The translations under genes were made by a program, and so were the position numbers. The notes beneath the pieces are model-generated. The model did no database searches, was not told the DNA's origin, and worked only from the letters and a program-made list of their open reading frames with translations. This document shows positions 33,919 through 57,537 of a stretch of 64,000 nucleotides of DNA, piece after piece. The stretch comes from Escherichia phage JM17. The stretch is taken from the sequence record PP400779; one strand, given 5' to 3'. Positions within the stretch are counted from its first letter, which is position 1. Each line of letters begins with the position of its first letter.

Positions 33919-34476
33919 ATGACTGAACAAAAACCTAAAAATAACTATGTGAATAATAAAGAGCTTCTCGCCGCTATAATCGAGTGGAAAAAGGAGCTCT
34001 TAAATAATAAAGACCCAAACAAAATTATTCGTCAGAATGATACCATCGGTTTAGCAATTATGCTTATCGCCGAAGGCCTGTCCAAACGTTTCAACTTTTC
34101 AGGATATACCCAGTCTTGGAAGCAGGAGATGATTGCAGATGGGATTGAAGCCTCTATTAAGGGACTTCATAATTTCGACGAAACTAAGTACAATAACCCA
34201 CATGCATACATAACTCGAGCTTGTTTTAATGCTTTTGTCCAACGTATCAAAAAAGAACGTAAGGAAGTTGCAAAGAAATATAGTTACTTCGTTCATAATG
34301 TCTATGACAGTCATGACGATGATATGGTAGCGTTGGTAGATGAAACGTTTATTCAAGACATCTACGATAAAATGACGCATTATGAAGAATCCGCTTATAA
34401 AGCTCCTGGGGCTGAAAAGAAGGAAGTTGTTAGCGATTCGCCTAGTTTGGATTTTTTATATGAGGATGACAATTGA
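33919..34476 (+). CDS. 55: late-transcription sigma factor gp55
   Basis: 185 aa; ...[49 protein letters not shown]... matches T4 gp55 as recalled. Confidence 0.9.
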
Positions 34477-34675
34477 CATCTCTAACTACTTAGAAGAACC
34501 TTTTGACGAAGCAATCCCTTATTTGGTAAAACTGTTGGGTCGTGAATTTAAAATTAATTTTGACATCGACCCTTTGAACCCACATGACGTGTCATTTTCG
34601 ATAAATGGGACTCCGGTTGAGTATGAGTTCTGTATTGAAGAGGGTGGACGTTTTTATTTTAATTTAATGAGATAA
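34466..34675 (+). CDS. hypothetical protein (in the slot where T4 carries alpha-gt)
   Basis: start overlaps the 3' end of gene 55. Confidence 0.35.
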
Positions 34676-34676
34676 T

Positions 34677-35000
34677 ATGACTACCGAGATTATTGAAAAT
34701 AAAGAAGCAGAAGATGCAGTAGCTAAAATGCTACAAGAAATCCAAAAGAAAAATGAAGCTGAAGCACGTAAAAAATCAGAAAAGATTCTTAAAAAGAATC
34801 GTTTTGAACTAAACCGTCTTTATGCTCATGCTCAAGAAGCAGCAATTCAAAACAACTTCGAAGCTTACGAATATGCTATTAAGAAATCTCGGGATATTCT
34901 ACGACAACCATATAATGACAAGTTAATTAAAATCCAGTGGGTTACTACTCGTCAGGCTATTGAGGACATCATTAATGGCGCTAGTTCAAACAAAGTTTAA
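34677..35000 (+). CDS. hypothetical coiled-coil protein
   Basis: 107 aa. Confidence 0.4.
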   Translation: MTTEIIENKEAEDAVAKMLQEIQKKNEAEARKKSEKILKKNRFELNRLYAHAQEAAIQNNFEAYEYAIKKSRDILRQPYNDKLIKIQWVTTRQAIEDIINGASSNKV

Positions 35001-35220
35001 ACGTCTGAAGCTGAACGCAGGGTTCACCCTTAAATTGGGAGGTCCTCTTTGTGTTAAAATTTCTGAAAAGGAATATCACGACGGTTCTATTACAGAAATT
35101 TGTCCGCCTATTGTAAAGGCAGACCCAAAACAACTCGTGTGGGCTGATTCATTTCAAGTTAAGAAATGGTGGAAACGATGAGAGAAATCGGTTTAGGTAT
35201 TTTCTGAGAGATGATTATGC

Positions 35221-35394
35221 ATGACGAACGACCTGACCTCTGAAAATTTCGATAAAATCCGTAAAGGCAAAGCAGAAAGAATGAGACGTTTTAAAGAGTC
35301 TTACGATAAAGCTAAAGCCGAAGGAACTATTACATACAAGCCCATTCGATTTAAAAGTTCAAATGAGCCTCTGTACGGTGTACTATGTGGATAG
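35221..35394 (+). CDS. small hypothetical basic protein (57 aa)
   Basis: not in track; followed directly by a terminator. Confidence 0.3.
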   Translation: MTNDLTSENFDKIRKGKAERMRRFKESYDKAKAEGTITYKPIRFKSSNEPLYGVLCG

Positions 35395-35418
35395 GAACTC
35401 TTCGGAGTTCCTTTTTTG
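35394..35418 (+). terminator. rho-independent terminator
   Basis: GGAACTC-TTCG-GAGTTCC followed by TTTTTTG. Confidence 0.6.
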
Positions 35419-35463
35419 CTTTATAAACGGATGATAGAATGAATTAACTAATGAGGAAATAAT

Positions 35464-36483
35464 ATGAAAATTTTGCACTTAGGCGACTTCCATATCGGAG
35501 TCAAACAAGACGACCCATGGGTTCAAGATATTCAACGTGATGGTATTCGTCAAGCAATTGAATACTCTAAGAAACACGGGATTAAAACTTGGATTCAGTA
35601 CGGTGATTGGTTTGACGTCCGTAAAGCAATAACACATCGTACAATGGAATTCAATCGTGAAATCGTTGATATGATTTCTAAAGCAGGCATTCACGTTCAT
35701 GTCACGATAGGAAACCATGACATGGCGTTTAAGAATACAATAACACCTAACACTGTTTCTGAATTGTTAACTCAATTTGAAAACTTTACTATTTACGAGC
35801 ATCCGACTACTGTAGATTTTGACGGATGTCTGATTGATATCGTTCCATGGATGTGTGAAGAAAATACAGGTGAAATCTTAGAGCACATCAAGACTTCTTC
35901 TGCCGCGTATTGTGTTGGGCACTGGGAACTGAACGGCTTTTATTTCTATAAAGGGATGAAGTCTCATGGGCTTGAACCTGATTTCTTAAAGACCTATAAA
36001 CAAGTCTGGTCTGGCCACTTCCACACAATCTCTGAAGCTGCTAACGTCAAATATATTGGGACACCATGGACCCTTACTGCAGGTGATGAGAACGACCCGC
36101 GCGGATTCTGGGTATTTGACACTGATGTTGAACGTATGGAATTTATTCCTAATGAAACAACATGGCATCGACGAATCACTTATCCATTTAAAGGCAAAAT
36201 CAATTATTCTGATTATACTAATCTAGCCGTACGTGTTATAGTATCAGAAATTGATTCAGAGTTGACTAAGTTTGAATCTGAACTTGAAAAAGTAGTTCAC
36301 TCTCTTCGTATGGTTTCTAAAGTTGATAACAGTGTTGAATCTGATGACGACCAGGAAATCGAGATTAAATCACTTCAAGATATCATTAAAGAATATATTG
36401 ACGCGATTCCAGATATCTCAGACGAAGACAGAGAAGCGCTGGTCAAATATTCCAACGAACTTTATATTGAGGCGACACAATGA
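35464..36483 (+). CDS. 47: recombination endonuclease subunit gp47 (Mre11-like)
   Basis: 339 aa; phosphoesterase motifs LHLGDFH, GDWFD, GNHD. Confidence 0.9.
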   Translation: MKILHLGDFHIGVKQDDPWVQDIQRDGIRQAIEYSKKHGIKTWIQYGDWFDVRKAITHRTMEFNREIVDMISKAGIHVHVTIGNHDMAFKNTITPNTVSELLTQFENFTIYEHPTTVDFDGCLIDIVPWMCEENTGEILEHIKTSSAAYCVGHWELNGFYFYKGMKSHGLEPDFLKTYKQVWSGHFHTISEAANVKYIGTPWTLTAGDENDPRGFWVFDTDVERMEFIPNETTWHRRITYPFKGKINYSDYTNLAVRVIVSEIDSELTKFESELEKVVHSLRMVSKVDNSVESDDDQEIEIKSLQDIIKEYIDAIPDISDEDREALVKYSNELYIEATQ

Positions 36484-36737
36484 CTTTAGATGAATTTAAT
36501 AATGCTGGTCTTGGGCTTGAAGTTGAAATAGACGTTAAAGATGATGATGGATTCGAGAACACTATCAAGTATTGGATTGAACCATTACGTGTTGAAGGCA
36601 ATGAAGTTAAAGCAGTTCATGTCTGCACCGACTGGGCTATTGAATTTAGCTTTAATATAATGGACAACGATACTCCCGGCTCTATTCTTAAAATGGCTGA
36701 AGCGTGTATTGAGGATGCGTATAATGACGAAGACTGA
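36480..36737 (+). CDS. hypothetical acidic protein
   Basis: ATGA overlap with gene 47. Confidence 0.45.
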   Translation: MTLDEFNNAGLGLEVEIDVKDDDGFENTIKYWIEPLRVEGNEVKAVHVCTDWAIEFSFNIMDNDTPGSILKMAEACIEDAYNDED

Positions 36738-36963
36738 TTATGAAATCCATCGTCATGAATTTAGTATTGGTGACGGTTATATTGGTATCGTTGAATGGAC
36801 TGAGAATTACGAGGAATCAACTCCTCGTTTCTTTGGAACAATGTATGTTACCTGTGAGTACGCACCAGGTGTTGTTATGTATGCAGAACTAGATGAATAT
36901 TTTGCTGATAGGGATGACATGTTAAAATATGTAGAGGACTTCATTCGAAGAGAATACATATGA
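36709..36963 (+). CDS. hypothetical protein
   Basis: alternative ATG at 36718. Confidence 0.4.
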   Translation: MRMRIMTKTDYEIHRHEFSIGDGYIGIVEWTENYEESTPRFFGTMYVTCEYAPGVVMYAELDEYFADRDDMLKYVEDFIRREYI

Positions 36964-38648
36964 AATCATTTAAATTAAATCGTGTTCGTTATCAAAACAT
37001 CATGTCGGTAGGTGGGAATCCTATTGATATCCAATTAGATAAAGTCCAAAAGACATTAATCACTGGTAAAAATGGTGGCGGTAAATCTACGATGTTAGAA
37101 GCCATTACTTTCGGACTTTTCGGTAAACCATTTCGTGATGTTAAGAAAGGACAAATCATTAATAGCACGAACAAGAAAGAGCTCTTAGTTGAGCTTTGGA
37201 TGGAATTCGATGATAAAAAATACTTCATTAAACGTGGCCAAAAGCCCAATATTTTCGAAATCTCCGTTGACGGTGTTCGTCTTGATGAATCTGCCAGCAG
37301 TCGCGACTTCCAAGAAGAATTTGAACGTAGCATCGGAATGTCATACGCGTCTTTTAAACAAATCGTTGTGCTTGGGACGGCAGGATATACCCCTTTCATG
37401 GCTCTTAGCACCCCTGCTCGTAGAAAACTTGTCGAAGACCTTTTAGAAGTCGGCACACTCGCTGAAATGGATAAAATCAATAAGTCTCAAGTTCGCGAAC
37501 TTAATTCTCAGGGACAAGTTCTTGATGCCAAGAAAGATGGTGTTATCCAACAAATTAAGATTTATAACGAGAATATCGAACGTCAAAAGAAATTATCTGG
37601 TGATAATGTAGCGCGTCTACAGAATATGTATGACGACCTAGCCAAAGAAGCTCGTTCATTAAAAGCAGAAATTGAAGAAGCTAATGAGCGACTACTTAAT
37701 ATCGTTCTTGATGAAGACCCTACTGAGGCATTCAACAAGATAGGACAAGAAGCATTCTTGATTAAATCTAAAATCGACTCATATAACAAAGTTATTAAGA
37801 TGTATCATGATGGCGGTACATGTCCTACTTGTGCATCACAGTTGCACCAGGGTGACCCTATTGTCTCTAAGATTACCGATAAGCTTCATGAATGTAATCA
37901 CTCATTCGAGCAACTTACCTGTCACAGAGATAATCTGAGTGTCCTAGTGGACGAATATCGAGCTAATGTTAAGACTAAACAGGACCTTGCATCCGATATT
38001 CGTACCAAGAAACAAGCAATGATTGCCACTATTGATAAAGCTAAGAAAGTTAAAGCTGCAATAGAACAAGCCTCGGCGGAATTTATCGACCATGCTGATG
38101 AGATAGCTTTGCTTCAAAAAGAACTTGATAAAATCATTAAAACAAAATCAGATATCGTTCTTGAAAAATATCATCGTGGTATTATCACAGATATGTTAAA
38201 AGATTCTGGTATTAAAGGTGCTATCATTAAAAAATATGTGCCTCTGTTTAATAAGCAGATTAACCATTATCTTAAAATCATGGAAGCCGATTACGTGTTT
38301 TCTATTGACGAAGAATTCAATGAATCTATAAAATCACGTGGCCGTGAAGAGTTCAGTTATGCTTCATTTAGTCAAGGTGAAAAGGCACGTATCGATATCG
38401 CATTGTTGTTTACATGGCGAGATATTGCTGAAAAGGTTTCTGGTGTTAAAATCAACACTCTAATTCTTGATGAGGTTTTTGATGGTGCTGTCGATTCTGA
38501 GGCTGTTAAGGCTATAGATACCATCCTTGGTAGTTTACAAAATACTAACGTGTTCATTATCTCTCATCGAGACCATGACCCTCAACGTTATGGACAACAT
38601 CTTCAAATGAGCAAAGTTGGACGATTTACTGTGATGACTGTCTCATAA
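36960..38648 (+). CDS. 46: recombination endonuclease subunit gp46 (Rad50/SbcC-like ATPase)
   Basis: 562 aa; Walker A GKNGGGKST; central coiled coil with CPTC zinc hook; Walker B LILDEVFDG. Confidence 0.9.
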   Translation: MKSFKLNRVRYQNIMSVGGNPIDIQLDKVQKTLITGKNGGGKSTMLEAITFGLFGKPFRDVKKGQIINSTNKKELLVELWMEFDDKKYFIKRGQKPNIFEISVDGVRLDESASSRDFQEEFERSIGMSYASFKQIVVLGTAGYTPFMALSTPARRKLVEDLLEVGTLAEMDKINKSQVRELNSQGQVLDAKKDGVIQQIKIYNENIERQKKLSGDNVARLQNMYDDLAKEARSLKAEIEEANERLLNIVLDEDPTEAFNKIGQEAFLIKSKIDSYNKVIKMYHDGGTCPTCASQLHQGDPIVSKITDKLHECNHSFEQLTCHRDNLSVLVDEYRANVKTKQDLASDIRTKKQAMIATIDKAKKVKAAIEQASAEFIDHADEIALLQKELDKIIKTKSDIVLEKYHRGIITDMLKDSGIKGAIIKKYVPLFNKQINHYLKIMEADYVFSIDEEFNESIKSRGREEFSYASFSQGEKARIDIALLFTWRDIAEKVSGVKINTLILDEVFDGAVDSEAVKAIDTILGSLQNTNVFIISHRDHDPQRYGQHLQMSKVGRFTVMTVS

Positions 38649-38702
38649 ACGCTTTAACATGATGTGGTTATAATGACCACATCAAATTAAATGGAGAACA
38701 AC

Positions 38703-38891
38703 ATGGAGTATTCAACCGGTCAACATCTTCTTGTTGTCCCTGAAATTAAAAAATATGTTTTGACCAATACGTTTTCAGGTGAAGAACATATTGTTACTGA
38801 ACAAATGCTCAAATCTGCTTTTAAAGATGAGTATAATAAAATAATGTCTAATCGCAATTCCGCATGGACAGTTACCGACTTCTACGAATAA
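38703..38891 (+). CDS. small hypothetical protein
   Basis: ATG after GGAG. Confidence 0.4.
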   Translation: MEYSTGQHLLVVPEIKKYVLTNTFSGEEHIVTEQMLKSAFKDEYNKIMSNRNSAWTVTDFYE

Positions 38892-38903
38892 GAGAGAAAT
38901 AAT

Positions 38904-39320
38904 ATGTTTACTACTGTTAAAGGTTTCACTGCTGCTGATCTGAAAGTTACTTCTATCCGTACTGACGCTAACCCACATAACCATAATCGTGTTCGTAAAG
39001 CATGGGTCCTGCATTGTGATGAAGCAAGTGCTAAAAAACTCCAATCTTTGCCACAAGAAACTCGTTTTATGATTTATGGTTTTATTGATAACGATGTATC
39101 TGATATGTGGATTCATCTGATGCGTAAGCACTATAAAGATTCTATCGAAGCAGGTGCTAAAATCGTTCTTGATAAAGACGGTTCTGAGCGTCTGGAAGAT
39201 TTCTACTGTGTTGATGCCGACGAACAACTAATTGCAGCTGGCGAAATTGTTGCTTCTAAAATTCCAGAATATATTGAATCACTGCCTGAAGCTATTAAAA
39301 AGCAGATGGTTGCTGCTTGA
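38904..39320 (+). CDS. rpbA: RpbA-like protein (assigned by position)
   Basis: 138 aa between 46 and 45 as in T4. Confidence 0.4.
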   Translation: MFTTVKGFTAADLKVTSIRTDANPHNHNRVRKAWVLHCDEASAKKLQSLPQETRFMIYGFIDNDVSDMWIHLMRKHYKDSIEAGAKIVLDKDGSERLEDFYCVDADEQLIAAGEIVASKIPEYIESLPEAIKKQMVAA

Positions 39321-39850
39321 TAATTATGAATTTAATATATCTTATAACCTTTTATAATCGTGAGATTAAAAATGAATACCCGTGTTATTATATAGGTTCT
39401 AAAGTTTCGTGTCATTTTAATGGAAAGGATATTATTGAAGATTCTACCGGTAAAATATATACCGGTAGTGTTAATTCCTCGTATTCTCCTTTATATAACA
39501 GATTAATAGACCAAGGCGAATATTCTGTAAAAATTTTAGGCGAAACCACATTAGACCCTAGAAGAATAGAAAGACTATTCCAACTCAATGTTAAAGCCGT
39601 TTCAAATGAAAAATATTTTAATAAGGCTTATGCTAACGAGAAGTCTAGAATATCAGCTAAAGGATATGCACCGTATAAAAATTTAAAAACAGGCAAAATA
39701 GTAAAACTTTCTAAAAACGAAATAAACGAAGATTACGTCGGTGTTAGAAAAAATTGCAAATTGTCGGAGAATCATTTAAACGCAATTAGAGAATTTCAAA
39801 AAAACATATTGGACCAAAGAACGAAGAGAGAAAGTTTCTATTCGTTCTAA
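39317..39850 (+). mobile_element. GIY-YIG-like homing endonuclease gene, N-terminal (catalytic) part; possibly split
   Basis: IYLITFYNREIKNEYPCYYIGSK paralogous to ORF 27871; ends 4 nt before the next ORF. Confidence 0.45.
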
Positions 39851-39854
39851 AAAA

Positions 39855-40217
39855 ATGTTTAACGATAGAGATTTTGCTTTAAAATTTAAAGATATAATGA
39901 ATTCTCCTAATGTTAAAGATAAAATAAAAATATCTAAAACATTGTATTGGTCTAAACCTGAAAATAGAGCAAAGGCCTCTATCGCAGCTTCGAAAAGAAA
40001 TGCAACCAAAGAATTTAAGGATAAATTCAGAAAATCTAAAGCTAGAGGTACATGGATATTTCATGAACAAAAATTAAAGGAATTGTGGATTGCTTTAGGA
40101 AAACCAAGTTATATTACATTTAGAAAACATGCAATTCAGCATGGTTTTAATGATGAATCATACCAAGGTGCTATCCGGTCTTGGACAAATTATTATGCTA
40201 ATAGGAAACCTAAATGA
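39855..40217 (+). mobile_element. C-terminal basic (DNA-binding-like) part of the split homing endonuclease
   Basis: Lys/Arg-rich 120 aa immediately downstream; together the two ORFs equal one HEG in size. Confidence 0.4.
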
Positions 40218-40900: not shown

Positions 40901-40975
40901 GTCAAAGCTTTACGTTTATTGTGATACGATTATGGAGGAGAAATCCTCCAGTTTAATGATAATGAGGAAAATTAC

Positions 40976-41938: not shown

Positions 41939-41939
41939 T

Positions 41940-42503: not shown

Positions 42504-42505
42504 AA

Positions 42506-42874: not shown

Positions 42875-42955
42875 AGCAATGGGACTTCGGTCCCATTTGG
42901 AGTATAATAAGTTCATCAACAAACAAAAGACAATAACTCGTCTAAAGGAAATTAA

Positions 42956-45667
42956 ATGAAAGAATTTTACTTAACGGTTGAACAGATTGGTGATTCAATT
43001 TTTGAACGTTACATCGATTCTAATGGCCGTGAACGTACTCGTGAAGTAGAATATAAACCATCACTGTTTGCTCATTGTCCAGAAAGTCAGGCTACGAAAT
43101 ATTTCGATATCTACGGTAAGCCGTGTACTCGTAAGTTGTTCGCTAATATGCGTGATGCCTCCCAATGGATTAAACGCATGGAAGATATCGGACTTGAAGC
43201 ACTTGGCATGGACGATTTCAAATTGGCGTATTTGTCTGACACTTATAACTATGAAATCAAATACGACCATACAAAAATTCGTGTGGCTAACTTCGACATC
43301 GAAGTAACATCTCCGGATGGGTTCCCTGAGCCATCACAAGCAAAACATCCGATTGATGCTATCACCCATTATGACTCAATTGACGACAGGTTCTACGTAT
43401 TTGATCTATTGAATTCTCCATATGGTAATGTAGAAGAATGGTCTATTGAAATCGCTGCTAAGCTTCAAGAACAAGGCGGTGATGAAGTTCCATCTGAAAT
43501 TATCGATAAAATCATTTATATGCCGTTCGATAACGAAAAAGAATTGTTGATGGAATATCTCAACTTCTGGCAACAGAAAACTCCTGTCATTTTGACTGGA
43601 TGGAACGTTGAGTCATTCGATATTCCATATGTGTATAACCGAATCAAGAATATTTTTGGCGAATCTACTGCGAAACGTTTATCACCACATCGTAAAACTC
43701 GTGTTAAAGTTATCGAAAACATGTATGGTTCTCGTGAAATCATTACATTGTTCGGTATCTCTGTTCTTGATTACATTGACCTTTACAAAAAATTCTCTTT
43801 TACCAATCAACCGTCGTATTCTCTGGATTACATTTCAGAATTTGAATTGAACGTTGGTAAACTGAAATATGATGGCCCTATTTCTAAGCTTCGTGAAAGC
43901 AATCACCAACGATATATTTCTTATAACATTATCGACGTGTATCGTGTATTGCAAATTGATGCTAAGCGTCAGTTCATCAACTTGAGCTTGGACATGGGTT
44001 ATTATGCTAAGATACAGATTCAATCTGTGTTTAGCCCAATTAAAACATGGGATGCTATTATTTTTAATAGCCTTAAAGAGCAGAACAAGGTGATTCCACA
44101 AGGTCGTTCTCACCCGGTTCAACCTTATCCCGGCGCTTTTGTTAAGGAACCTATTCCAAATCGATACAAATATGTAATGAGTTTCGACCTTACATCTCTG
44201 TATCCAAGTATTATTCGCCAAGTGAATATTAGCCCGGAAACAATAGCAGGAACGTTTAAAGTAGCTCCATTGCATGATTATATTAACGCAATCGCTGAAC
44301 GTCCTTCAGATGTGTACAGTTGCTCTCCTAACGGCATGATGTATTATAAAGACCGTGATGGTGTAGTTCCAACTGAAATCACTAAGGTCTTTAATCAACG
44401 TAAAGAACATAAAGGTTACATGCTTGCAGCTCAACGTAATGGTGAAATAATTAAAGAGGCATTGCATAATCCTAATCTTTCTGTTGACGAACCATTAGAT
44501 GTTGATTATCGTTTCGACTTCAGTGATGAGATTAAAGAAAAGATTAAAAAGTTGTCTGCTAAATCTCTTAATGAAATGTTGTTTAGAGCTCAACGTACTG
44601 AAGTTGCAGGTATGACCGCACAAATTAACCGTAAATTGCTCATCAACTCACTTTATGGTGCACTTGGAAACGTTTGGTTCCGTTATTATGATTTGCGTAA
44701 TGCTACTGCAATCACAACATTCGGGCAAATGGCTTTACAGTGGATTGAACGTAAAGTTAATGAATATCTGAATGAAGTTTGTGGTACAGAAGGTGAAGCT
44801 TTCGTTCTTTATGGTGATACGGACTCTATTTACGTATCTGCTGATAAAATTATCGATAAGGTTGGTGAATCTAAATTCCGTGATACTAACCATTGGGTAG
44901 ACTTCTTAGATAAGTTTGCACGTGAACGTATGGAACCTGCTATTGATAGAGGTTTCCGTGAAATGTGCGAATACATGAACAATAAACAACACTTAATGTT
45001 CATGGACCGAGAAGCTATCGCTGGGCCTCCGCTTGGTTCTAAAGGTATTGGCGGATTTTGGACTGGTAAGAAACGTTATGCATTAAACGTGTGGGATATG
45101 GAAGGTACTCGTTACGCTGAGCCTAAACTCAAAATCATGGGTCTAGAAACTCAGAAATCTTCGACCCCTAAAGCAGTACAGAAAGCTCTTAAAGAATGTA
45201 TTCGTCGTATGCTTCAAGAAGGTGAAGAATCATTACAAGAATATTTTAAAGAGTTTGAAAAAGAATTCCGTCAATTGAATTATATTAGCATCGCGTCGGT
45301 ATCTTCTGCGAATAACATTGCTAAATATGACGTCGGTGGATTCCCTGGTCCTAAATGCCCGTTCCATATTCGTGGAATTCTGACATATAACCGAGCTATC
45401 AAAGGTAATATCGATGCACCACAAGTTGTAGAAGGTGAAAAAGTATATGTTCTGCCTTTACGTGAAGGAAACCCATTCGGTGATAAATGTATCGCATGGC
45501 CTTCTGGTACTGAAATCACAGATTTAATTAAAGACGATGTACTTCATTGGATGGACTACACTGTTCTCCTTGAGAAGACATTTATTAAACCACTTGAAGG
45601 ATTCACATCAGCAGCGAAACTCGATTATGAGAAGAAAGCATCTCTGTTCGATATGTTCGATTTTTGA
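42956..45667 (+). CDS. 43: DNA polymerase (family B, gp43)
   Basis: 903 aa; exonuclease motifs FDIEV and YNIIDV; polymerase motifs DLTSLYPSII, KLLINSLYGALG, YGDTDS; from memory resembles the RB69-type polymerase. Confidence 0.97.
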   Translation: MKEFYLTVEQIGDSIFERYIDSNGRERTREVEYKPSLFAHCPESQATKYFDIYGKPCTRKLFANMRDASQWIKRMEDIGLEALGMDDFKLAYLSDTYNYEIKYDHTKIRVANFDIEVTSPDGFPEPSQAKHPIDAITHYDSIDDRFYVFDLLNSPYGNVEEWSIEIAAKLQEQGGDEVPSEIIDKIIYMPFDNEKELLMEYLNFWQQKTPVILTGWNVESFDIPYVYNRIKNIFGESTAKRLSPHRKTRVKVIENMYGSREIITLFGISVLDYIDLYKKFSFTNQPSYSLDYISEFELNVGKLKYDGPISKLRESNHQRYISYNIIDVYRVLQIDAKRQFINLSLDMGYYAKIQIQSVFSPIKTWDAIIFNSLKEQNKVIPQGRSHPVQPYPGAFVKEPIPNRYKYVMSFDLTSLYPSIIRQVNISPETIAGTFKVAPLHDYINAIAERPSDVYSCSPNGMMYYKDRDGVVPTEITKVFNQRKEHKGYMLAAQRNGEIIKEALHNPNLSVDEPLDVDYRFDFSDEIKEKIKKLSAKSLNEMLFRAQRTEVAGMTAQINRKLLINSLYGALGNVWFRYYDLRNATAITTFGQMALQWIERKVNEYLNEVCGTEGEAFVLYGDTDSIYVSADKIIDKVGESKFRDTNHWVDFLDKFARERMEPAIDRGFREMCEYMNNKQHLMFMDREAIAGPPLGSKGIGGFWTGKKRYALNVWDMEGTRYAEPKLKIMGLETQKSSTPKAVQKALKECIRRMLQEGEESLQEYFKEFEKEFRQLNYISIASVSSANNIAKYDVGGFPGPKCPFHIRGILTYNRAIKGNIDAPQVVEGEKVYVLPLREGNPFGDKCIAWPSGTEITDLIKDDVLHWMDYTVLLEKTFIKPLEGFTSAAKLDYEKKASLFDMFDF

Positions 45668-45707
45668 TATAATGTCATGGACGGTAAACTAATTAAATGA
45701 GAGAAAT

Positions 45708-46343
45708 ATGAAAACTACTCCTATTACTATCGCTATTGACGCAATCATAAAACAAGCTTCTTCTTTGGCCGCTATGGCCAAAGTAATTAGTCAAAACCCT
45801 GCTCGTTATAATGCTATTCTAGAAACTCTTCGACGCCCTGGACTTAGTAATTATGAAAGCCGGGTAATTATTACAGGTGTTGGTAAGAATGCTAATATCG
45901 CAACTAAAGCTTCCGAGACATTTGCTTCACTAGGTATTCCTAGCATGTATTTGAACACTGGGCATTATTCTCACGGTGATGCAGGATTCATTGCGCCTAA
46001 TGATGTGTTGATTCATATTAGTCGTTCTGGTAAGACTGAAGAAATGATAGGTGTTGCTAAACATCTTCGTATGATTCGTCCTCAGGTTAAACAGATTCTG
46101 TTACATTGTAACCCAGACATTCCACAAGAATACGAAGCTCTTTTTGATTATACGTTCTGTACTGGCATCGCGGTAGAGGTTGATGAGAATTCTCTGGCTC
46201 CGACTATGTCCACTACATTGTTGTTAGCGCTTATCGATACGTTTGCTATCAACCTTTCGTCTGAACGTGGATTTACCTCTAATGATTTCCTTAAGTTCCA
46301 TCCAGGCGGTGCACTAGGTGCCATGTTACGAGGCGAACAATGA
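45708..46343 (+). CDS. SIS-domain sugar-phosphate isomerase (KdsD/KpsF/GmhA-like)
   Basis: 211 aa; SIS motifs ITGVGKNANIATK and ISRSGKTEE. Confidence 0.55.
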   Translation: MKTTPITIAIDAIIKQASSLAAMAKVISQNPARYNAILETLRRPGLSNYESRVIITGVGKNANIATKASETFASLGIPSMYLNTGHYSHGDAGFIAPNDVLIHISRSGKTEEMIGVAKHLRMIRPQVKQILLHCNPDIPQEYEALFDYTFCTGIAVEVDENSLAPTMSTTLLLALIDTFAINLSSERGFTSNDFLKFHPGGALGAMLRGEQ

Positions 46344-46483
46344 AAGCAATAACAATAGGACTTTTACTATTGATGCTTGTCATGACTATCTACTGGAGCT
46401 TAACGGCTCCGGTAATGATTCCAACACTTGTAATTGGATGGATTATGATTGGACTACAAGCAAAGTATGAATGCTTTAACTAG
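46340..46483 (+). CDS. small hydrophobic membrane peptide (47 aa)
   Basis: ATGA overlap with the SIS gene stop; not in track. Confidence 0.3.
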   Translation: MKAITIGLLLLMLVMTIYWSLTAPVMIPTLVIGWIMIGLQAKYECFN

Positions 46484-46524
46484 AATAGTGTACAATACTC
46501 CTACTTACCAATGAGGACTTTAAC

Positions 46525-48210
46525 ATGAAAAAAGCTGTTATTCTTGGTGCTGGACTGGCAACTCGTTTGTATCCAATAACGCATCATATTCCTAAGGTGC
46601 TTGTTAACTATAAACAAGATACTATTCTGAGCAATTTGTATACAATTTATTCTGACCTTGGCGCAGATGAAATTATTGTAGTAGTTCATTCAAAATTTGC
46701 TGAAACTGTTCGAGCTTATTGTGAACAAGAAGGGTTCAATGTGACTATTCGTACAGTTGATGAAGCGTATGGTTCTGCTTATGCTCTTGCTAAATTACAC
46801 AAAGATTTAGACGGCCATAATGTAATTGTTAACTGGTGTGATATTATTCCTGATTTTGGTTCATGGTCTTGGAATGTTAACGCAATCTATGTTAAGGGTG
46901 ACGAATGTCGATATAATTTCGACGGTGAAAATATCACTAACGTAGGTTCAACAGGTGGTAATGTTGTAGGAATTTATCAGTTCAAAGACTGGGAATTCTA
47001 TATGGGTTCTACTGATGAGGAAATTCATGAATACTGCAAAGGACGTGATTTCGTAGAATTCCTTTACGGCAGCGCATTCAATAAATCAGAGCTTATGAAT
47101 CTAATTGATTTAGGTGATATGCCTAAACTTGAAAAAGCTCATGAAGTTCGTGAACTTAATCGTAGTTTTAATGCAGTTGAAATTGGTGAAGAAACTGTAA
47201 CTAAATTCGCATTAACCGAACAGGGTCGAGCTCTTCAGAAAGATGAGATTTCGTGGTATCTTAAAGTGAAATCAGATTCAGTTCCTCAGTTAGTTTCTGT
47301 TAATGAAAATAACTTTGAAATGGAACGCATTAAAGGTAAGCCTGCATTTGAATATATTAAATCCAAATCAAGTCTTGCTCGTCCACAAATTGTTGATGCA
47401 ATTTTAGATGCACTGAAATTCAGCACAGACACTTATTTTGTAAGTCCTGAAACTGTTCGTCGTGATTTCACTAAAGAATTCTATACGAAAGTTATTGATC
47501 GTTGTGAAAGCATTCAACCATTGATTGATTCATTTGGTAAAATCACACATGTGAACTACACTAAGATTGGACGTCTGAAGCCAATGCTGAAACAAGCTTT
47601 AGAACACCTCATTCGTTATCATAACCGTTCTCAGGGACAGTACTCTGTTATTCACGGTGACCCGAACTTCAGTAATACTATGATTACTGATAATGGCGAA
47701 GTCAAGTTTATCGACCCTCGTGGATATTTTGGTGAAACCAAGATTTACGGGCCAAAATTGTACGATGAAGCTAAAGTGCTTTACGCTGTTTCAGGTTATG
47801 ATGAATTCAATGCTAATCCGACTTGGGGACAGTTTACTATTGATGAAACAACTTGTAATGTGACTATTAACATCAATCCATTAGTTTACAAATATGGAAA
47901 GATGAGTTCGTTTAACGAGTATCATCATTTGGCAGTGGCAATTATCTGGATTGCATTAGGTGGTTATTTCAAGAATAATCCACTTAAAGCGGTAGCCGCA
48001 TATTATAAAGGTATGGAACTTCTGACTAAGCAATTACGTAACATGGGCCGTGTACTTCAGGACGGCTCTATTAGTTATGACGTAGCAGAACCTGTAACGG
48101 CTACTCTGATTACAAAAAATCCTGGTAAATGGGTACTAACTGATAAAGAAACTGGTGTTTCCTATCGTCCAATCGGTGGCGATATCACTCATCAATGGGA
48201 ACGAATTTGA
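46525..48210 (+). CDS. bifunctional sugar-1-phosphate nucleotidyltransferase / sugar kinase (N-terminal NDP-sugar pyrophosphorylase, C-terminal APH/choline-kinase-like kinase)
   Basis: 561 aa; N-terminal GAGLATRLYP..PK signature; C-terminal Brenner motif HGDPNFSNTMITDNGEVKFIDPRGYFG. Confidence 0.6.
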   Translation: MKKAVILGAGLATRLYPITHHIPKVLVNYKQDTILSNLYTIYSDLGADEIIVVVHSKFAETVRAYCEQEGFNVTIRTVDEAYGSAYALAKLHKDLDGHNVIVNWCDIIPDFGSWSWNVNAIYVKGDECRYNFDGENITNVGSTGGNVVGIYQFKDWEFYMGSTDEEIHEYCKGRDFVEFLYGSAFNKSELMNLIDLGDMPKLEKAHEVRELNRSFNAVEIGEETVTKFALTEQGRALQKDEISWYLKVKSDSVPQLVSVNENNFEMERIKGKPAFEYIKSKSSLARPQIVDAILDALKFSTDTYFVSPETVRRDFTKEFYTKVIDRCESIQPLIDSFGKITHVNYTKIGRLKPMLKQALEHLIRYHNRSQGQYSVIHGDPNFSNTMITDNGEVKFIDPRGYFGETKIYGPKLYDEAKVLYAVSGYDEFNANPTWGQFTIDETTCNVTININPLVYKYGKMSSFNEYHHLAVAIIWIALGGYFKNNPLKAVAAYYKGMELLTKQLRNMGRVLQDGSISYDVAEPVTATLITKNPGKWVLTDKETGVSYRPIGGDITHQWERI

Positions 48211-48956
48211 TACATTATCTCTACAAAACTACTAATCTTATAAACGGTAAAGTTTATTTAGGAATGCACTCGGCTGAAGAAGCCGAGCCTTTAGATTTAT
48301 ATAAAGGTTCTGGTAAATTATATAAAAAGGCTGAAAGGAAATATGGGAAGGAAAATTTTCTTAAAGAAATCATTTCCTACCATAGCTCAAGAGAAGAATT
48401 AAAAATAGCTGAAAAGGCTCTAATAACATTAGACATAGTTAAAGACCCAAATTATTACAATCTTAAAACTGGTGGCGAAGGTGGTTCTGACGGGTTATCC
48501 CAAAGGTCCAAGGATAAAATTTCTAAGGCAAATAAAGGACGTTTAGTTGGTGATAAAAACCCAAGATGGGGTAAAACTTTGTCAGCTGAATCTATAGCTA
48601 GGGGTAAAGAAAAGCACAGGAGGTATGGTAAACCTGCATTACATGGTCTAAAGATTAATGTAGATGGCAAATATTATGAATCCTGTCGGGAAGCGGCTAA
48701 AGATTTAGGTATATCTTCTGCCACGATTCAAAAGAGAGTAAAATCGCCTAAATATCTTAATTATCGGTATCAGGACGAAAGCAAAAATGCTCACAAGTCT
48801 CAAAAATTTGTTAAAATAAACGAAAATTACTATGAATCTCTTAGGATAGCTGAAAAGAAAACGGGTATTCCTAGAAAGCGTATAGCTGATAATATTAAAA
48901 ATTCTATTGAAGGATATTGCTATGAAACCATTACATCTTTGCGTGGACGTCGATGA
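48195..48956 (+). mobile_element. GIY-YIG homing endonuclease gene (Seg-like)
   Basis: IHYLYKTTNLINGKVYLGMHS; NUMOD3-like repeats; overlaps both neighbours (16 nt upstream, 35 nt downstream). Confidence 0.55.
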
Positions 48957-49296
48957 TTGTATAACAGAGTGGAATAACAATCGTGATTACGTGAACTTCA
49001 AACCAGACGTCGAAATGGTGTCTGCCATTAATGCCCTGTATGATGCAGGGCATACAATAACGCTTTACACTGCTCGAGGTATGAAGTCAGTAGGTCCTGG
49101 TCGTATAGCAATTGACATTCTCCCAAGTCTGATTCAGAACTTGGCAAACATTGGCTTGAAGTACCATAATTTGCTAACACATAAACCAGTATATGATTGG
49201 ATTATCGACGACAAAGCTATGCGTCCTGACGAATTCAAAGCTCTTATGAATAAAGGCGAATTCGAAACATTTAAATCATATAAACCGAATCTATAA
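48922..49296 (+). CDS. HAD-superfamily phosphatase (KdsC-like small sugar-phosphate phosphatase)
   Basis: motif I LHLCVDVDDCIT, motif II TLYTARG, Lys in THKP, motif IV WIIDD. Confidence 0.55.
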   Translation: MKPLHLCVDVDDCITEWNNNRDYVNFKPDVEMVSAINALYDAGHTITLYTARGMKSVGPGRIAIDILPSLIQNLANIGLKYHNLLTHKPVYDWIIDDKAMRPDEFKALMNKGEFETFKSYKPNL

Positions 49297-49353
49297 TAAT
49301 TTAAGTAAGACCTGCAAAAACCATCGCATCAATTAACGTGAGATGCAAAAAAA

Positions 49354-50514
49354 ATGAATACTTTTAAAATTGGAACGAATTTTGATTTAGCTCTTCTTGA
49401 TAAAATCGTAGAGCTCAATAAAACTTATCCTAATAGCTTGATAAACGAAGTATACGGCTCTACAAGAGAAATGGCTTTTGTAGCAGCCAGACCTGATTTT
49501 AGGCTTCCTGACGTTGACAAAAAGATGTTAGAAGATTACGTTAAACGTTGTAACGAATTAGGTATTTGCTTTAACTATACACTCAACACGATAAATCCTG
49601 GTTCAAAAAGAGAACTAGTTGAGTGGAAGAAGAAAGCTATTCAGGATTATGTTCAGTATCTTTGGTCAATAGGCGTATGGCGTATTACTATCGCTAACCC
49701 TGTTGTTATGGAAATTGTTCGTGAAGTCAATAAAGACATTGAGATTGAAGTTTCAACAATTCTACATGTCGATGCTGTAACTCAAATCAAATACTTGCAT
49801 GACCAGTATAATATCAAAAAGGTCTGCTGTGGAATTCATAAGAACCGTTCAGTTTCTTTCCTGAAGCGTGCAGCAGAGTTTTGCAATAAGAACAATATAA
49901 TATTTGAAGTTCTTGTAAATGAGTTCTGTTCTAATGCCGGTAAAGGGTATACAACACATTGTAGCTATCGTGACTCTTGCTATATTTTCCATAGTACTGA
50001 TGTTACAGCTGATGATGCTAAATCCTTAAACGGATATCCTATGCAGCACTGTATTAAAGCTCGTGATACAGACCCATTTAACTGGTTGAGAACTCGTTTT
50101 GTTCGTCCTCAAGATTTGAAACTTTATAATGATATTGGTATCACTCAATTCAAAGTTTCAGGACGTACAGGTAGCACAGACTACATTTTGAAAGTTCTTG
50201 AAGCATACGCTTCTGAAAAGTTTGAAGGTAATTTGTTAGAACTGTGGAAGCCTTTAGAGACTATTTTCACTCTTGAAAATGAGACCGAGTTTTCACATAC
50301 GGTAAATATTGAAACCTCTTTGTTAGATGGCTTTTTAGAAAAAAGGTGGTTCAGACATCCAGATTTCGATTGTGCTAATGAGATCTGCGGGACGACGTGT
50401 ACATATTGTGAAAGATATTATAAACGTCAGTTATCTAAAAATGGGTTAGCAGAAAACTCTATATCTATTATTGATATAACTAACTCTGATGACGCTTTGA
50501 GGTACCCGGAATGA
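49354..50514 (+). CDS. Cys-rich enzyme of unknown function (possible metal/Fe-S protein, U32-like features tentative)
   Basis: 386 aa; Cys clusters VCCGIH, FCSNAGKGYTTHCSYRDSCY, CANEICGTTCTYCERY. Confidence 0.45.
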   Translation: MNTFKIGTNFDLALLDKIVELNKTYPNSLINEVYGSTREMAFVAARPDFRLPDVDKKMLEDYVKRCNELGICFNYTLNTINPGSKRELVEWKKKAIQDYVQYLWSIGVWRITIANPVVMEIVREVNKDIEIEVSTILHVDAVTQIKYLHDQYNIKKVCCGIHKNRSVSFLKRAAEFCNKNNIIFEVLVNEFCSNAGKGYTTHCSYRDSCYIFHSTDVTADDAKSLNGYPMQHCIKARDTDPFNWLRTRFVRPQDLKLYNDIGITQFKVSGRTGSTDYILKVLEAYASEKFEGNLLELWKPLETIFTLENETEFSHTVNIETSLLDGFLEKRWFRHPDFDCANEICGTTCTYCERYYKRQLSKNGLAENSISIIDITNSDDALRYPE

Positions 50515-50750
50515 TTTCTAGAAAAACTTTTAATCACCAACTTAATGAAGAGATTTTGACTACGAAACTGAACACTAACGAACAAATTCTTAAAAAGGCC
50601 CTTATGGGCCTGTTTGAAACCAAAGCGGCTAAAGTGATTAAAGGACCTGTTCAATTAGAATATTACGCTGATACATTTCTTCATAGTGTTCTTGGAAGTA
50701 TCGATGCTGAAGCTTTACGTTATATCAACATTGCCAAGAAATTCAAATAA
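50511..50750 (+). CDS. hypothetical protein (doubtful)
   Basis: ATGA overlap; an internal hairpin GGCCC-TTAT-GGGCC (50590-50607) could instead be a terminator. Confidence 0.3.
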   Translation: MISRKTFNHQLNEEILTTKLNTNEQILKKALMGLFETKAAKVIKGPVQLEYYADTFLHSVLGSIDAEALRYINIAKKFK

Positions 50751-50792
50751 GCTTTACGAATTGAGTATATAATAAATTGTATTGAGGTAAAC

Positions 50793-51509
50793 ATGGGAAA
50801 ACATAACACAATGAAATATATCAAAGCCGCAGATTTTCAAACCGCATTTAAAGCAGTCAATCGTGAAATTTTAGAAAACCCGGAATTCGTAACTGATTCT
50901 CGTATTGGACGTTGTAATGAAATTGGGTCTATGACAGTAGTTGTTGACACTCCATCATCATTCAAAATGACTGACCCACGTATTAACCGCATCTCTTATG
51001 AATATGCCGAAGACTTCTGGAAGTTTATGATTTCTGGTGGTACCAACGCAGAAGAAGCGTTTAAGGCATATCCTAATGTCGCTAAATTTATTTCTAAACC
51101 AAAATCAGATGTTTTGCCGGCGAACTTCAATACTTTCTATGGTCCTCGCATTGCGGCCCAATTACCAGCTCTTCTAAAAGAACTTAAAGAGAAGCCTAAC
51201 TCTCGAAGAGTTGTGTTCCAAATTCTAGAAAGTTCTGATCAGGCTTTGCTTGATTCGGATGAAACGCTTGAATATCCATGTACTGACTCAGTGACTTATT
51301 ATATTCGTGATGGTAAGCTTTATACCCACTGTCATATGCGTTCTCAGAACTGTGCTGTTGTTATGCAGTTGGATTTTTATCTCCAAGGAAAATTACTTCA
51401 TTATATCGCTAACGAATGCGGTGTAGAAGTTGGTGATTATACTCATACCATGGTAAGTGCCCATGTGTTTGAACGTGATTTTGATTATGTTAAAGGATTC
51501 CTTGACTAA
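50793..51509 (+). CDS. 42: dCMP hydroxymethylase (thymidylate synthase family, gp42-like, divergent)
   Basis: 238 aa; nucleophile Cys in EYPCTDSVTYYIRD; MRSQNCAVVMQLDFY with Asp at the pyrimidine-specificity position (Asn in thymidylate synthases). Confidence 0.65.
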   Translation: MGKHNTMKYIKAADFQTAFKAVNREILENPEFVTDSRIGRCNEIGSMTVVVDTPSSFKMTDPRINRISYEYAEDFWKFMISGGTNAEEAFKAYPNVAKFISKPKSDVLPANFNTFYGPRIAAQLPALLKELKEKPNSRRVVFQILESSDQALLDSDETLEYPCTDSVTYYIRDGKLYTHCHMRSQNCAVVMQLDFYLQGKLLHYIANECGVEVGDYTHTMVSAHVFERDFDYVKGFLD

Positions 51510-52408
51510 TGGCTATTTTCCGCGTACCAATCTTGAGTATGCGGTCTTATGAAACTGGACAGTATGCTATCCTTAAGGATGGCAACTTCCAACTTCATTT
51601 GCACCGTGCTAATCCGGGTGATGTGATTACATATCCACGTAATGCATCTGATATTAAAGAATGCGAACGTCTTTTCCCAGAATTTAAGTTTGTTCCATTA
51701 TGGTATAAAGATAACGCTTATAACACTCGTAAATATTTCTGGTCTGAAAATGAATTTGTGGTTGATTCATTAATTGCTTATTATGATTGCGATTTTCTAA
51801 TCACAGATATAACTGGATATGACGGCGCTTTTGATGTAGAATTCAATTTCAATATCACTGCAGACCCTAATAAACCACGTTTTTATATTGACGAATTCTT
51901 AAAAACCGACATGTTGTCGGTTAATCGTTCAATCCAAACAACTGTGTTGAATGAACGTCAAAAAGAAGTGCTGGTTAACGCAGGTGCAGATGGTAATAAG
52001 ATTATCGTAACGCAGAAAGTTATACGTCCTTCCATCATGCAGCGTCTTGTAGGTGATTTGGCTCCTATTTATCTAGATGGTATTTTTCATCCATTTCGAA
52101 TTAGTGACCCGTGCTATCGTTTTGAACAAGTGGTTGAATGTGCAATTCAATTAGGTCAACCGCTTTATATAACCGATCCAAATAATAGCTTTGACAGAAA
52201 TAAGTATCCTGAAGAAGCGTTGATTCGAATTTTTAAACCAACTAAAACTGAGTACTATCAAATTCTTAAAGGACGTCCGAAGATTCAATATTTCGAAAAT
52301 CCTGAAGAAGTATTTCATCCAGGTCTTGGTGAGTTCATCTACTTTAATGCTTTAATTTCTTCACCGTATAATATACCTAAATATGAAGATGTCGTAATCG
52401 AGGAATAA
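51509..52408 (+). CDS. protein of unknown function in the beta-gt slot (candidate DNA glycosyltransferase, unproven)
   Basis: 299 aa; no resemblance to T4 beta-gt recognised. Confidence 0.4.
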   Translation: MAIFRVPILSMRSYETGQYAILKDGNFQLHLHRANPGDVITYPRNASDIKECERLFPEFKFVPLWYKDNAYNTRKYFWSENEFVVDSLIAYYDCDFLITDITGYDGAFDVEFNFNITADPNKPRFYIDEFLKTDMLSVNRSIQTTVLNERQKEVLVNAGADGNKIIVTQKVIRPSIMQRLVGDLAPIYLDGIFHPFRISDPCYRFEQVVECAIQLGQPLYITDPNNSFDRNKYPEEALIRIFKPTKTEYYQILKGRPKIQYFENPEEVFHPGLGEFIYFNALISSPYNIPKYEDVVIEE

Positions 52409-52409
52409 A

Positions 52410-52958: not shown

Positions 52959-53056
52959 GAGCCATTTAAAGTTTTAAATGCTGTATAACCCTTAGTATAT
53001 AATCATTTTATCTTTTAAACATGAGTAAAATATAATGATGCCTATGGAAAAATACA

Positions 53057-57476: not shown

Positions 57477-57537
57477 TTGGTTTACACCAAAGTTAAAACA
57501 AGATACTATAAACATAACAAATCAAGAGGAAATTAAC

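Follow-up and report, generated by a model that had tools for sequence, protein, structure and literature searches.

The phage DNA analysed here (the window, a stretch of 64 kb) comes, as judged by sequence comparison, from an RB69-like phage (Mosigvirus) with arabinosylated 5-hydroxycytosine, in which a 299-residue protein encoded at 51509–52408 is probably the GT-B enzyme that adds the first arabinose. The window shares 99.7% DNA identity with Mosigvirus phage FL18, and twelve of thirteen proteins of the modification cluster are 98–99.9% identical to those of RB69, the remaining one, gp49, being 92% identical. Mono- and di-arabinosyl-5-hydroxydeoxycytidine were shown chemically in the DNA of RB69 (PMC13326640) and in that of NicPhage, which is 98.3% identical to window positions 50500–53100 (PMC13390438). 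The arabinosyl-deoxycytidines of these relatives bear out the original prediction of a modification other than glucose. The explanation by arabinosyl-5-hydroxycytosine was published earlier (Thomas 2018; Lee et al. NAR 2026, PMC13326640), and the inference that T4 glucosyltransferases are missing from an RB69-like phage is correct and already known biology. The base chemistry and the hydroxylase activity were demonstrated by others for near-identical proteins, and the orthology, fold, synteny and distribution described below, together with the absence of α-gt and β-gt, were established in this analysis. We infer from them the arabinose transfer by the 299-residue protein, its place as the first transferase and the identity of its acceptor.

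The T4 glucosyltransferases are absent because the phage uses the published pathway that places arabinose on 5-hydroxycytosine. When 36 T4 proteins were searched by tblastn against the whole 64-kb window, neither α-gt (best match E=0.017) nor β-gt (best match E=6.3) had a homologue; the absence noted earlier for the T4 positions of the two genes extends to the entire window. An α-gt match at 6712–6891 (a 69-residue stretch) sits within a homologue of T4 e.5 and was rejected as chance. No glycosyltransferase family of Pfam was matched by the 24 window ORFs scanned, which comprise most, not all, of the ORFs of at least 200 residues. All genes located here are on the + strand. The α-gt slot is delimited by gene 55, encoding the late sigma factor (33919–34476; 91% identity to T4 gp55, match 33919–34464), and gene 47, encoding an SbcD-like nuclease (35464–36483; 76% identity to T4 gp47, match 35464–36480; Pfam Metallophos). 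As noted earlier, four small ORFs are the only genes between them, and they are homologues of T4 a-gt.5 (34382–34675; E=5e-14; phrog_1169), a-gt.4 (34677–35000; E=2e-32, match 34689–34979; phrog_951), a-gt.3 (34960–35181; E=6e-29, match 34981–35175; phrog_1648) and a-gt.2 (35221–35394; E=4e-23, match 35236–35391), all found by tblastn. The a-gt.5 start at 34382 is that of the mechanical ORF, and the T4 match spans 34460–34672. None of the genes in the slot matches α-gt, and the T4 genes that the interval lacks are mobB, a-gt and 47.1. At their place, 3′ of the a-gt.2 homologue, a terminator-like hairpin can be read at about 35396–35420; the last 70 bases upstream of gene 47 contain this hairpin together with the ribosome-binding site of that gene.

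In place of T4 gene 42, the window encodes a thymidylate-synthase homologue (50793–51509) with only 25% identity to T4 gp42 (tblastn match 50871–51482). It is 99.2% identical to RB69 gp48, for which the activity of a flavin- and O2-dependent 5-hydroxy-dCMP synthase was demonstrated (PMC13326640), and nearly identical to the HY126 enzyme of known structure (9iqc/9ir2, E=8e-161). Its alignment contains the signature D169N, N177D and L143E (E. coli ThyA numbering), so that positions 169, 177 and 143 are N, D and E in the window synthase and D, D and D in T4 gp42. By these residues and identities, the protein is assigned to the D169N branch of thymidylate synthases as a 5-hydroxy-dCMP synthase and not a hydroxymethylase.

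The interval between gene 43 (42956–45667; DNA polymerase, 99.9% identity to RB69 gp43) and uvsX (53057–54229; Pfam T4_UVSX_C and RecA, 68% identity to T4 UvsX, match 53057–54226) is predicted to carry the genes for UDP-arabinose synthesis. The first is a putative arabinose-5-phosphate isomerase (45708–46343), the orthologue of RB69 gp55 (98% identity; Pfam SIS; NCBIfam KpsF/GutQ and KdsD). It is followed by a 561-residue putative bifunctional sugar kinase and UDP-sugar pyrophosphorylase (46525–48210), an AfhE analogue that corresponds to RB69 gp53 and gp52 (99.5–99.7% identity), which are split in the RB69 record. [quoted passage not shown] A GIY-YIG homing endonuclease (48195–48956; Pfam I-TevI_DNA-bd, NUMOD1, NUMOD3 and SegE_GIY-YIG; 45% identity to T4 SegA) is inserted in the cluster, and comparison of the junctions showed that RB69 lacks it. 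The HAD-type sugar phosphatase (48922–49296), an AfhF analogue, is orthologous to RB69 gp51 (98% identity to residues 8–128; NCBIfam capsule biosynthesis phosphatase), and its DVDD motif is intact. Next to it are a U32-family protein (49354–50514; Pfam Peptidase_U32 E=7e-11; 99% identity to RB69 gp50) and the 79-residue orthologue of RB69 gp49 (50511–50750; 92% identity), homologous to small ORFs adjoining U32 in PM2 and a Yersinia phage. Two pathway members lie outside 33919–52408: the gene 1 dNMP kinase (803–1537; Pfam DNMK E=2e-97; 62% identity to T4 gp1) is of the type of RB69 gp159, which phosphorylates 5hodCMP (PMC13326640), and the gene 56 dCTPase (60822–61343) is 97% identical to RB69 gp56.

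The 299-residue protein is encoded between the gene-42-like synthase and uvsX, and its start overlaps the stop of the synthase (TAATG). This is the position of β-gt in T4, and the equivalence is one of position without homology. The description of the 42–uvsX interval as this ORF plus a P-loop kinase, neither resembling β-gt, agrees with the ORF check, tblastn and the profile probability of 0.3% for β-gt. The protein is 98.3% identical to RB69 gp47 and 99.1% to RB69 gp46, colinear with them apart from a single-base indel between the records, and matches phrog_3891 (E=1e-155). RB69 gp46:47 was named 'arabinosyltransferase 1' by Lee et al., and its orthologue in Acinetobacter phage DLP3 is gp79 (PMC13326640). 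We found no substantive difference from these proteins; the RB69 reference record splits the ORF through one extra T, a sequencing error according to Lee et al. (PMC13326640). The high-confidence structure model contains two Rossmann-like domains separated by a cleft, which assigns the protein to the GT-B fold, and its closest structural matches are solved GT-B enzymes. The model and the orthology to RB69 gp46:47 support its original designation as a candidate transferase. The suggested comparison with glycosyltransferase families succeeded at the level of modelled fold and failed at that of profiles, since no Pfam (E≤0.01) or NCBIfam family was matched. The profile of the 299-residue family gave probabilities below 1% against T4 α-gt (0.1%), T4 β-gt (0.3%) and RB69 gp3 (0.4%), and no other ORF in the window matched it. 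Membership in GT4 was rejected, as the Pfam profile Glycos_transf_1 is not matched and the EX7E motif is not conserved: E267 is replaced by K or T in most members, and only E/D275 and H270-P271-G272 are conserved.

The fold also bears on the proposal that the protein is no transferase and supplies the sugar donor as a UDP-pentose pyrophosphorylase, as was concluded for TH1_063 of Shewanella phage Thanatos. TH1_063 is a full-length orthologue with 49% identity, and the purified protein converted UTP and xylose-1-phosphate to UDP-xylose, as detected by LC-MS/MS (PMC12838424). However, the fold of the 299-residue protein is GT-B and not that of a nucleotidyltransferase, NTP_transferase was absent from its Pfam and NCBIfam scans, and the cluster already has a real nucleotidyltransferase domain in the 561-residue protein with the UDP-arabinose-forming HY126 counterpart. 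The control for TH1_063 was a reaction without enzyme, and a host uridylyltransferase may have co-purified. We regard a pyrophosphorylase function as highly improbable.

A thymidylate-kinase-like P-loop kinase of 182 residues (52410–52958; 98% identity to RB69 gp45; phrog_761 thymidylate kinase; P-loop GPDNAGKT) starts one base past the stop of the transferase gene. The order synthase, transferase, kinase is kept in the window, Thanatos and two metagenomic contigs of unrelated phages (L007 and L008). Coupling of stops and starts is tight, and all four synthase homologues have N at ThyA position 169. The 299-residue family occurs in 350 phage records and the kinase in 343, with matching genus counts. 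The gp3-type transferase was found in 211 records, assigned to Escherichia, Shigella, Enterobacteria, Acinetobacter, Mosigvirus, Tegunavirus and two entries listed simply as 'phage', with no Shewanella record among the matches. The window encodes no transferase of gp3 type, and in FL18, the closest relative, the gene for it is located about 21.7 kb downstream of the 299-residue gene, approximately 9 kb beyond the point corresponding to the window end. This supports the original suggestion that a further transferase may be encoded outside the window.

The base-proximal arabinose could instead be added by the gp3-type enzyme, with the 299-residue protein attaching a later sugar or using another acceptor. 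Thomas et al. 2018 proposed RB69 ORF003c as an arabinosyltransferase, and structures of its HY126 counterpart in complex with UDP (9iqz/9ir0) show this gp3 homologue to be a real UDP-binding transferase. Apart from He et al. 2026 and Mahler et al. 2025, in which the questions of activity and acceptor may be settled, we found no report in the literature of transfer activity for the 299-residue family. This assignment of the first sugar to gp3 is nevertheless unlikely: some 140 of the 350 records carrying the 299-residue protein lack the gp3 type, Thanatos is reported to be mono-arabinosylated with a single transferase (Lee et al., PMC13326640) although no Shewanella record has the gp3 type, and the gene always linked to the 5-hydroxy-dCMP synthase is that of the 299-residue protein. 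The distribution of 350 against 211 records and the mono-arabinosylation of Thanatos fit the 299-residue enzyme as the universal first transferase.

Based on these comparisons, a pathway can be proposed. The synthase would convert dCMP to 5-hydroxy-dCMP with flavin and O2, and the isomerase, kinase/pyrophosphorylase and phosphatase would lead from ribulose-5-phosphate to UDP-arabinofuranose. The 299-residue protein, a small sequence-divergent GT-B enzyme, would transfer the first arabinose from UDP-arabinofuranose to the 5-hydroxyl of cytosine, and the unrelated GT-B enzyme of gp3 type, encoded outside the window, would add the second arabinose on DNA. For the first arabinose, we assume DNA as the acceptor by default and regard free nucleotide as a plausible alternative. 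Tested singly, the DLP3 transferases, among them the orthologue gp79, were inactive on 5hoC-DNA with UDP-Araf or UDP-Arap (Lee et al., PMC13326640). TH1_063 glycosylated none of three acceptors that lack a 5-hydroxyl, namely plasmid DNA, dCMP and dCTP (PMC12838424).

The free-nucleotide alternative is a variant of the proposed pathway in which the 299-residue protein glycosylates 5-hydroxy-dCMP, the kinase phosphorylates the bulky arabinosyl-nucleotide and the polymerase incorporates it, so that the first sugar is pre-replicative and only further sugars are added on DNA. The inactivity of the DLP3 transferases on 5hoC-DNA is consistent with this route, and the data of Lee et al. do not, by their own account, separate a mononucleotide from a DNA acceptor (PMC13326640). 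The conserved order of these genes in distant phages, where they overlap or abut, and the near-equal distributions of transferase and kinase point in the same direction; nevertheless, linkage and fusion indicate a common pathway, not a common substrate. Natural fusions of the transferase to a C-terminal thymidylate-kinase-like domain occur in six representative clusters (P0228, P0233, P0236, P0241, P0252 and P0260), with Pfam kinase matches that fall under the curated cut-off. A second nucleotide kinase also calls for a reason when gp1 already handles 5hodCMP. The family is acidic (pI 5.1 for the window protein, median 5.2), but T4 α-gt is mildly acidic too, and the pI is weakly informative. 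On the other side, glycosylation in T4 is post-replicative. In addition, 5hodCTP itself is incorporated into DNA in E. coli, which provides a DNA-level acceptor, and attachment of the later sugars takes place on DNA (PMC13326640). Taken together, glycosylation of the free nucleotide is a possibility that we hold tentatively, behind transfer to DNA.

Replacement of the T4 glucosyl-hydroxymethylcytosine system by arabinosyl-5-hydroxycytosine means that RB69-like phages escape or trigger different restriction, CRISPR and glycosylase defences, which is relevant to the choice and engineering of therapeutic phages. If the first sugar is added to the nucleotide, the phage would polymerize a pre-glycosylated dCTP analogue, a pre-replicative glycosylated base unlike the T4 paradigm, and a transferase and kinase acting on free nucleotides would be of interest for the enzymatic production of glycosylated DNA.

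The best structural matches of the 299-residue protein are retaining GT-B enzymes of GT4 type (sucrose-phosphate synthase 6kih, BshA, MshA and PimA). It shares with the bacterial enzymes of this type the architecture of two Rossmann domains and a conserved acidic residue after the H-P-G loop of the C-terminal domain, and differs from them in its shorter N-terminal domain as well as in the profile and motif noted above. T4 β-gt, at the equivalent position between 42 and uvsX, is basic (pI 9.05) in contrast to the acidic 299-residue protein, and transfers glucose to 5-hydroxymethylcytosine, whereas the predicted reaction of the 299-residue protein places arabinofuranose on 5-hydroxycytosine. T4 α-gt is located elsewhere, between 55 and 47, is 100 residues longer and has no sequence similarity to it. 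The second arabinosyltransferase, represented by RB69 gp3 and the HY126 glycosyltransferase, is likewise unrelated in sequence and has a narrower distribution.

The T4 alpha- and beta-glucosyltransferases have no homologues at their T4 positions in JM17, as the original prediction had claimed, and translated comparison extended this to the whole window. Thirty-six T4 genes from the region between 61.2 and nrdG were translated and searched against the whole window by tblastn, and the T4 core genes gave strong matches in which the T4 order is kept. All genes discussed here are on the + strand. Gene 55 (33919-34464, 91% identity to T4) and gene 47 (35464-36480, 76%) are followed by 46, 45, 44, 62 and regA, by gene 43 (42956-45658, 62%), and by uvsX (53057-54226, 68%) with 40 and 41 behind it. 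T4 beta-gt matched the window at E=6.3. The best match of T4 alpha-gt, 69 residues at 6712-6891 (E=0.017), is a chance similarity located within the orthologue of T4 e.5. The interval between genes 55 and 47 had been said to hold only four small ORFs; these are the homologues of T4 a-gt.5, a-gt.4, a-gt.3 and a-gt.2, and the genes missing relative to T4 are exactly mobB, a-gt and 47.1. The 70 bases 5' of gene 47 contain a GC-rich hairpin, then a T run and the gene 47 ribosome-binding site. The slot between gene 42 and uvsX contains, as predicted, a 299-residue ORF (51509-52408) and a 182-residue P-loop kinase (52410-52958, motif GPDNAGKT). The homologues of imm and imm.1, which in T4 lie between 42 and 43, are found after dmd (57114-57783); arabinose genes occupy the 43-42 interval in their place, and RB69 is arranged likewise. 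Unconnected with the transferase question, the homologue of T4 61.2 (58131-58790) matches the Pfam family AdfA (anti-DarT factor A, E=2e-117).

A transferase hidden elsewhere in the window was rejected: the profile of the 299-residue protein's family matches this ORF alone, and no Pfam transferase model matched the 24 ORFs scanned, which comprise most of those of at least 200 residues. Of eight large ORFs without known function that were compared with T4, six have orthologues there (e.6, e.5, nrdC.11, nrdC.10, nrdC.6 and nrdC.3). The ORFs 8318-9274, which matches DUF7275/DUF7277 only, and 9652-10338 have no orthologue in the T4 stretch searched.

The explanation of the missing glucosyltransferases is published biology and already known. 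Escherichia phage FL18 shares 99.7% identity with positions 50500-53100, and about 150 other phages share 98%; all records checked (FL18, NRG-P0074 and RB69) are classed in the genus Mosigvirus. The proteins of the RB69 reference genome are colinear with the window, and 12 of the 13 RB69 cluster proteins compared share 98-99.9% identity with it; gp49 shares 92% and gp56, the product of gene 56, 97%. RB69 DNA carries arabinose, and the phage lacks alpha-gt and beta-gt and has novel sugar genes in the 43-uvsX interval (Thomas et al. 2018, PMC6024577). The chemistry was later revised to mono- and di-arabinosyl-5-hydroxycytosine, which fully replaces cytosine and has its sugar ether-linked to an oxygen on C5 itself (Lee et al. 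2026, PMC13326640). An independent study reported 5-ara-dC and 5-ara-ara-dC at a ratio of 1:4 in the DNA of NicPhage (PMC13390438), which shares 98.3% identity with the window across the query. The overall inference of the original prediction, a non-glucose modification with the 299-residue protein as candidate transferase, was right, but it assumed hydroxymethylcytosine as the acceptor, and the base here is 5-hydroxycytosine.

The synthase of this base is encoded by the gene-42-like ORF (50793-51509). Its product shares only 25% identity with T4 gp42, compared with 60-90% for neighbouring core proteins (tblastn), is 99.2% identical to RB69 gp48, and gave E=8e-161 against the solved HY126 enzyme. 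Aligned to E. coli ThyA, it has N, D and E at positions 169, 177 and 143, respectively; T4 gp42 keeps D169, and the D169N substitution is the signature of 5-hydroxy-dCMP synthases (Lee et al., PMC13326640). Formation of 5-hydroxy-dCMP by RB69 gp48, a thymidylate-synthase homologue that loosely binds a flavin (identified as FMN or a related derivative), was demonstrated in vivo, including with 18O2 (PMC13326640). A Flavodoxin_2-type gene (L008 4739-5293) of a metagenomic phage contig of 122 kb lies directly upstream of a D169N synthase, a transferase and a kinase, which fits the synthase's need for reduced flavin.

[quoted passage not shown] It also encodes the dNMP kinase gp1 (803-1537) and the dCTPase gp56 (60822-61343). 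UDP-arabinofuranose synthesis has been assigned to RB69 gp55, gp52:53 and gp51 (PMC13326640). A GIY-YIG homing endonuclease gene (48195-48956, 45% to T4 SegA), absent from RB69, is inserted between the genes of the 561-residue protein and the phosphatase; it overlaps the 3' end of the gene before it and takes the place of phosphatase codons 1-7, leaving the DVDD motif intact. Public annotations of the records matching 46525-52408 are inconsistent: the transferase is labelled 'RNA polymerase binding protein' (LC53, VAC36) or 'deoxycytidylate 5-hydroxymethyltransferase' (ATK47), the 561-residue enzyme 'dCMP deaminase' (NRG-P0074), and the HAD phosphatase 'phosphoheptose isomerase'.

The 299-residue ORF corresponds to RB69 gp47 (residues 1-181, 98.3% identity) followed by gp46 (99.1%), and at the DNA level the RB69 record has one extra T. 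[quoted passage not shown] The protein belongs to the published RB69 gp46:47/DLP3 gp79 family, phrog_3891 (unknown function), which is small, with 228 representatives at E<=1e-3 among 1.84 billion protein clusters. Some members (P0139, P0149, P0151, P0173, P0179 and P0235) have an extra N-terminal domain of about 190 residues, which gave one sub-threshold match to HAD hydrolases only. No Pfam or NCBIfam family matches the 299-residue protein. A family profile built from 56 diverse homologues found no relative among PDB sequences, and its comparison with T4 alpha-gt, T4 beta-gt and RB69 gp3 gave probabilities of 0.1-0.4%, which indicates no relationship. At the sequence level the protein belongs to none of the families of alpha-gt, beta-gt, gp3 or Pfam GT4; assignment by sequence was rejected, and the fold alone is informative.

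The AlphaFold2 model calculated from the family alignment is very confident (pLDDT 95.3, pTM 0.90). Foldseek placed UDP-GlcNAc 2-epimerases on top, followed by GT-B transferases such as MshA, in agreement with a GT-B fold. Invariant residues of the family cluster in both domains: S10-M-R-S13, K23-D-G-N26, R33, R74, D100 and R124 in the N-terminal half, and F193-x-P-F-R197, D200, Y203, T222-D-P-N225, K246, H270-P-G272 and E/D275 in the C-terminal half. The C-terminal residues R197, K246 and E275 form a pattern that would be expected where GT4-like enzymes bind a nucleotide sugar; the family does not conserve the textbook EX7E motif.

We infer that the 299-residue protein is the first arabinosyltransferase, in agreement with its original nomination as a candidate transferase. 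Its RB69 counterpart gp46:47 has been named 'arabinosyltransferase 1', and gp3 'beta-arabinosyltransferase 2' (PMC13326640). In all loci compared (the window, RB69, LC53, PM2, Klebsiella EI, a Proteus phage, a Yersinia phage, Thanatos, and two metagenomic phage contigs of 355 kb and 122 kb), its gene is directly 3' of the 5-hydroxy-dCMP synthase gene. The family occurs in 350 phage records, compared with 211 for the gp3 type, 209 of which are named Escherichia, Shigella, Enterobacteria, Acinetobacter, Mosigvirus or Tegunavirus; no Shewanella record is among the 211. Thanatos is mono-arabinosylated and has one transferase (Lee et al., PMC13326640). The suggestion that the true transferase might lie outside the window holds for the second enzyme: the window contains nothing that matches RB69 gp3, the FL18 homologue of which is 21.7 kb downstream of the 299-residue gene, about 9 kb past the window end. 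Against the assignment, the DLP3 transferases, including the orthologue gp79, did not singly glycosylate 5-hydroxycytosine-containing DNA in vitro (PMC13326640). Furthermore, the full-length Thanatos orthologue TH1_063 (49% identity) reportedly converted UTP and xylose-1-phosphate to UDP-xylose and left plasmid DNA, dCMP and dCTP unglycosylated, which would make the 299-residue protein a pyrophosphorylase. We give this reading little weight, because a nucleotidyltransferase has a different fold and is already encoded in the cluster, and because the acceptors offered to TH1_063 lacked the 5-hydroxyl.

Whether the first arabinosyltransferase acts on a mononucleotide or on DNA is not distinguished by published data (Lee et al., PMC13326640). 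A route in which 5-hydroxy-dCMP is first glycosylated and then phosphorylated by a dedicated kinase would agree with four observations, but we consider it less likely than not. Very distant phages share the order of synthase, transferase and thymidylate-kinase-like kinase. In the window, the synthase and transferase genes overlap at TAATG, and a single base separates the transferase stop from the start of the kinase gene. The distributions of transferase and kinase are nearly equal (350 and 343 records; Escherichia 176/176, Acinetobacter 57/57, Shigella 15/15, Klebsiella 26/25). Six representative clusters (P0228, P0233, P0236, P0241, P0252 and P0260) are natural fusions of 519-599 residues, the C-terminal halves of which align end to end with these kinases. 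The kinase nature of these halves rests on the full-length alignment and on sub-threshold Pfam Thymidylate_kin matches, found in two of the six; BLAST of the 182-residue kinase against the fusion proteins gave no match. Since gp1 already phosphorylates 5-hydroxy-dCMP, a second kinase calls for a separate substrate. However, gene order, distribution and fusions prove only that the two enzymes are coupled in a pathway, not that they share a substrate. The isoelectric point, taken as a proxy for DNA binding, is acidic for the 299-residue protein (pI 5.1), and T4 alpha-gt is mildly acidic too.

The U32-family protein of the cluster (49354-50514) has been labelled 'sugar or heterocycle reductase' (Lee et al., PMC13326640). 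Its gene is very conserved, always with at least 80% identity in 221 phage records; Acinetobacter is outside the ten commonest organism names for U32 matches, even though the transferase and kinase occur in 57 Acinetobacter phages. The U32 gene of five phage genera has a neighbour that encodes a chorismate mutase (Pfam CM_2, 34.7-47.2 bits, cut-off 27; L010 6158-6502, L006 38060-38317, L012 2825-3067, L013 2902-3288 and L014 2875-3168). The window has no chorismate mutase gene beside U32. The 79-residue gp49 (50511-50750) was rejected as a candidate, having no CM_2 match and being unlike phage chorismate mutases; it resembles a small ORF adjoining them. Among U32 proteins, TrhP, RlhA and UbiU/UbiV act as hydroxylases that depend on prephenate and not on O2; the product of RlhA is 5-hydroxycytidine in rRNA. 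The conservation, distribution and CM_2 neighbours of the phage gene suggest a prephenate-dependent cytosine C5 hydroxylase, and it is plausible that U32 would provide an O2-independent route to 5-hydroxycytosine alongside the O2- and flavin-dependent synthase. No description of such a route was found in the searchable literature. A simple link of U32 to aerobic or anaerobic hosts is weakened by about 40 Escherichia phage records with the transferase but without U32.

The cluster of JM17 is the functional counterpart of the 42/beta-gt pair of T4 and occupies the same slot. It differs from the T4 pair in that the base is 5-hydroxycytosine, the sugar is arabinofuranose, and the predicted GT-B enzyme is non-homologous.
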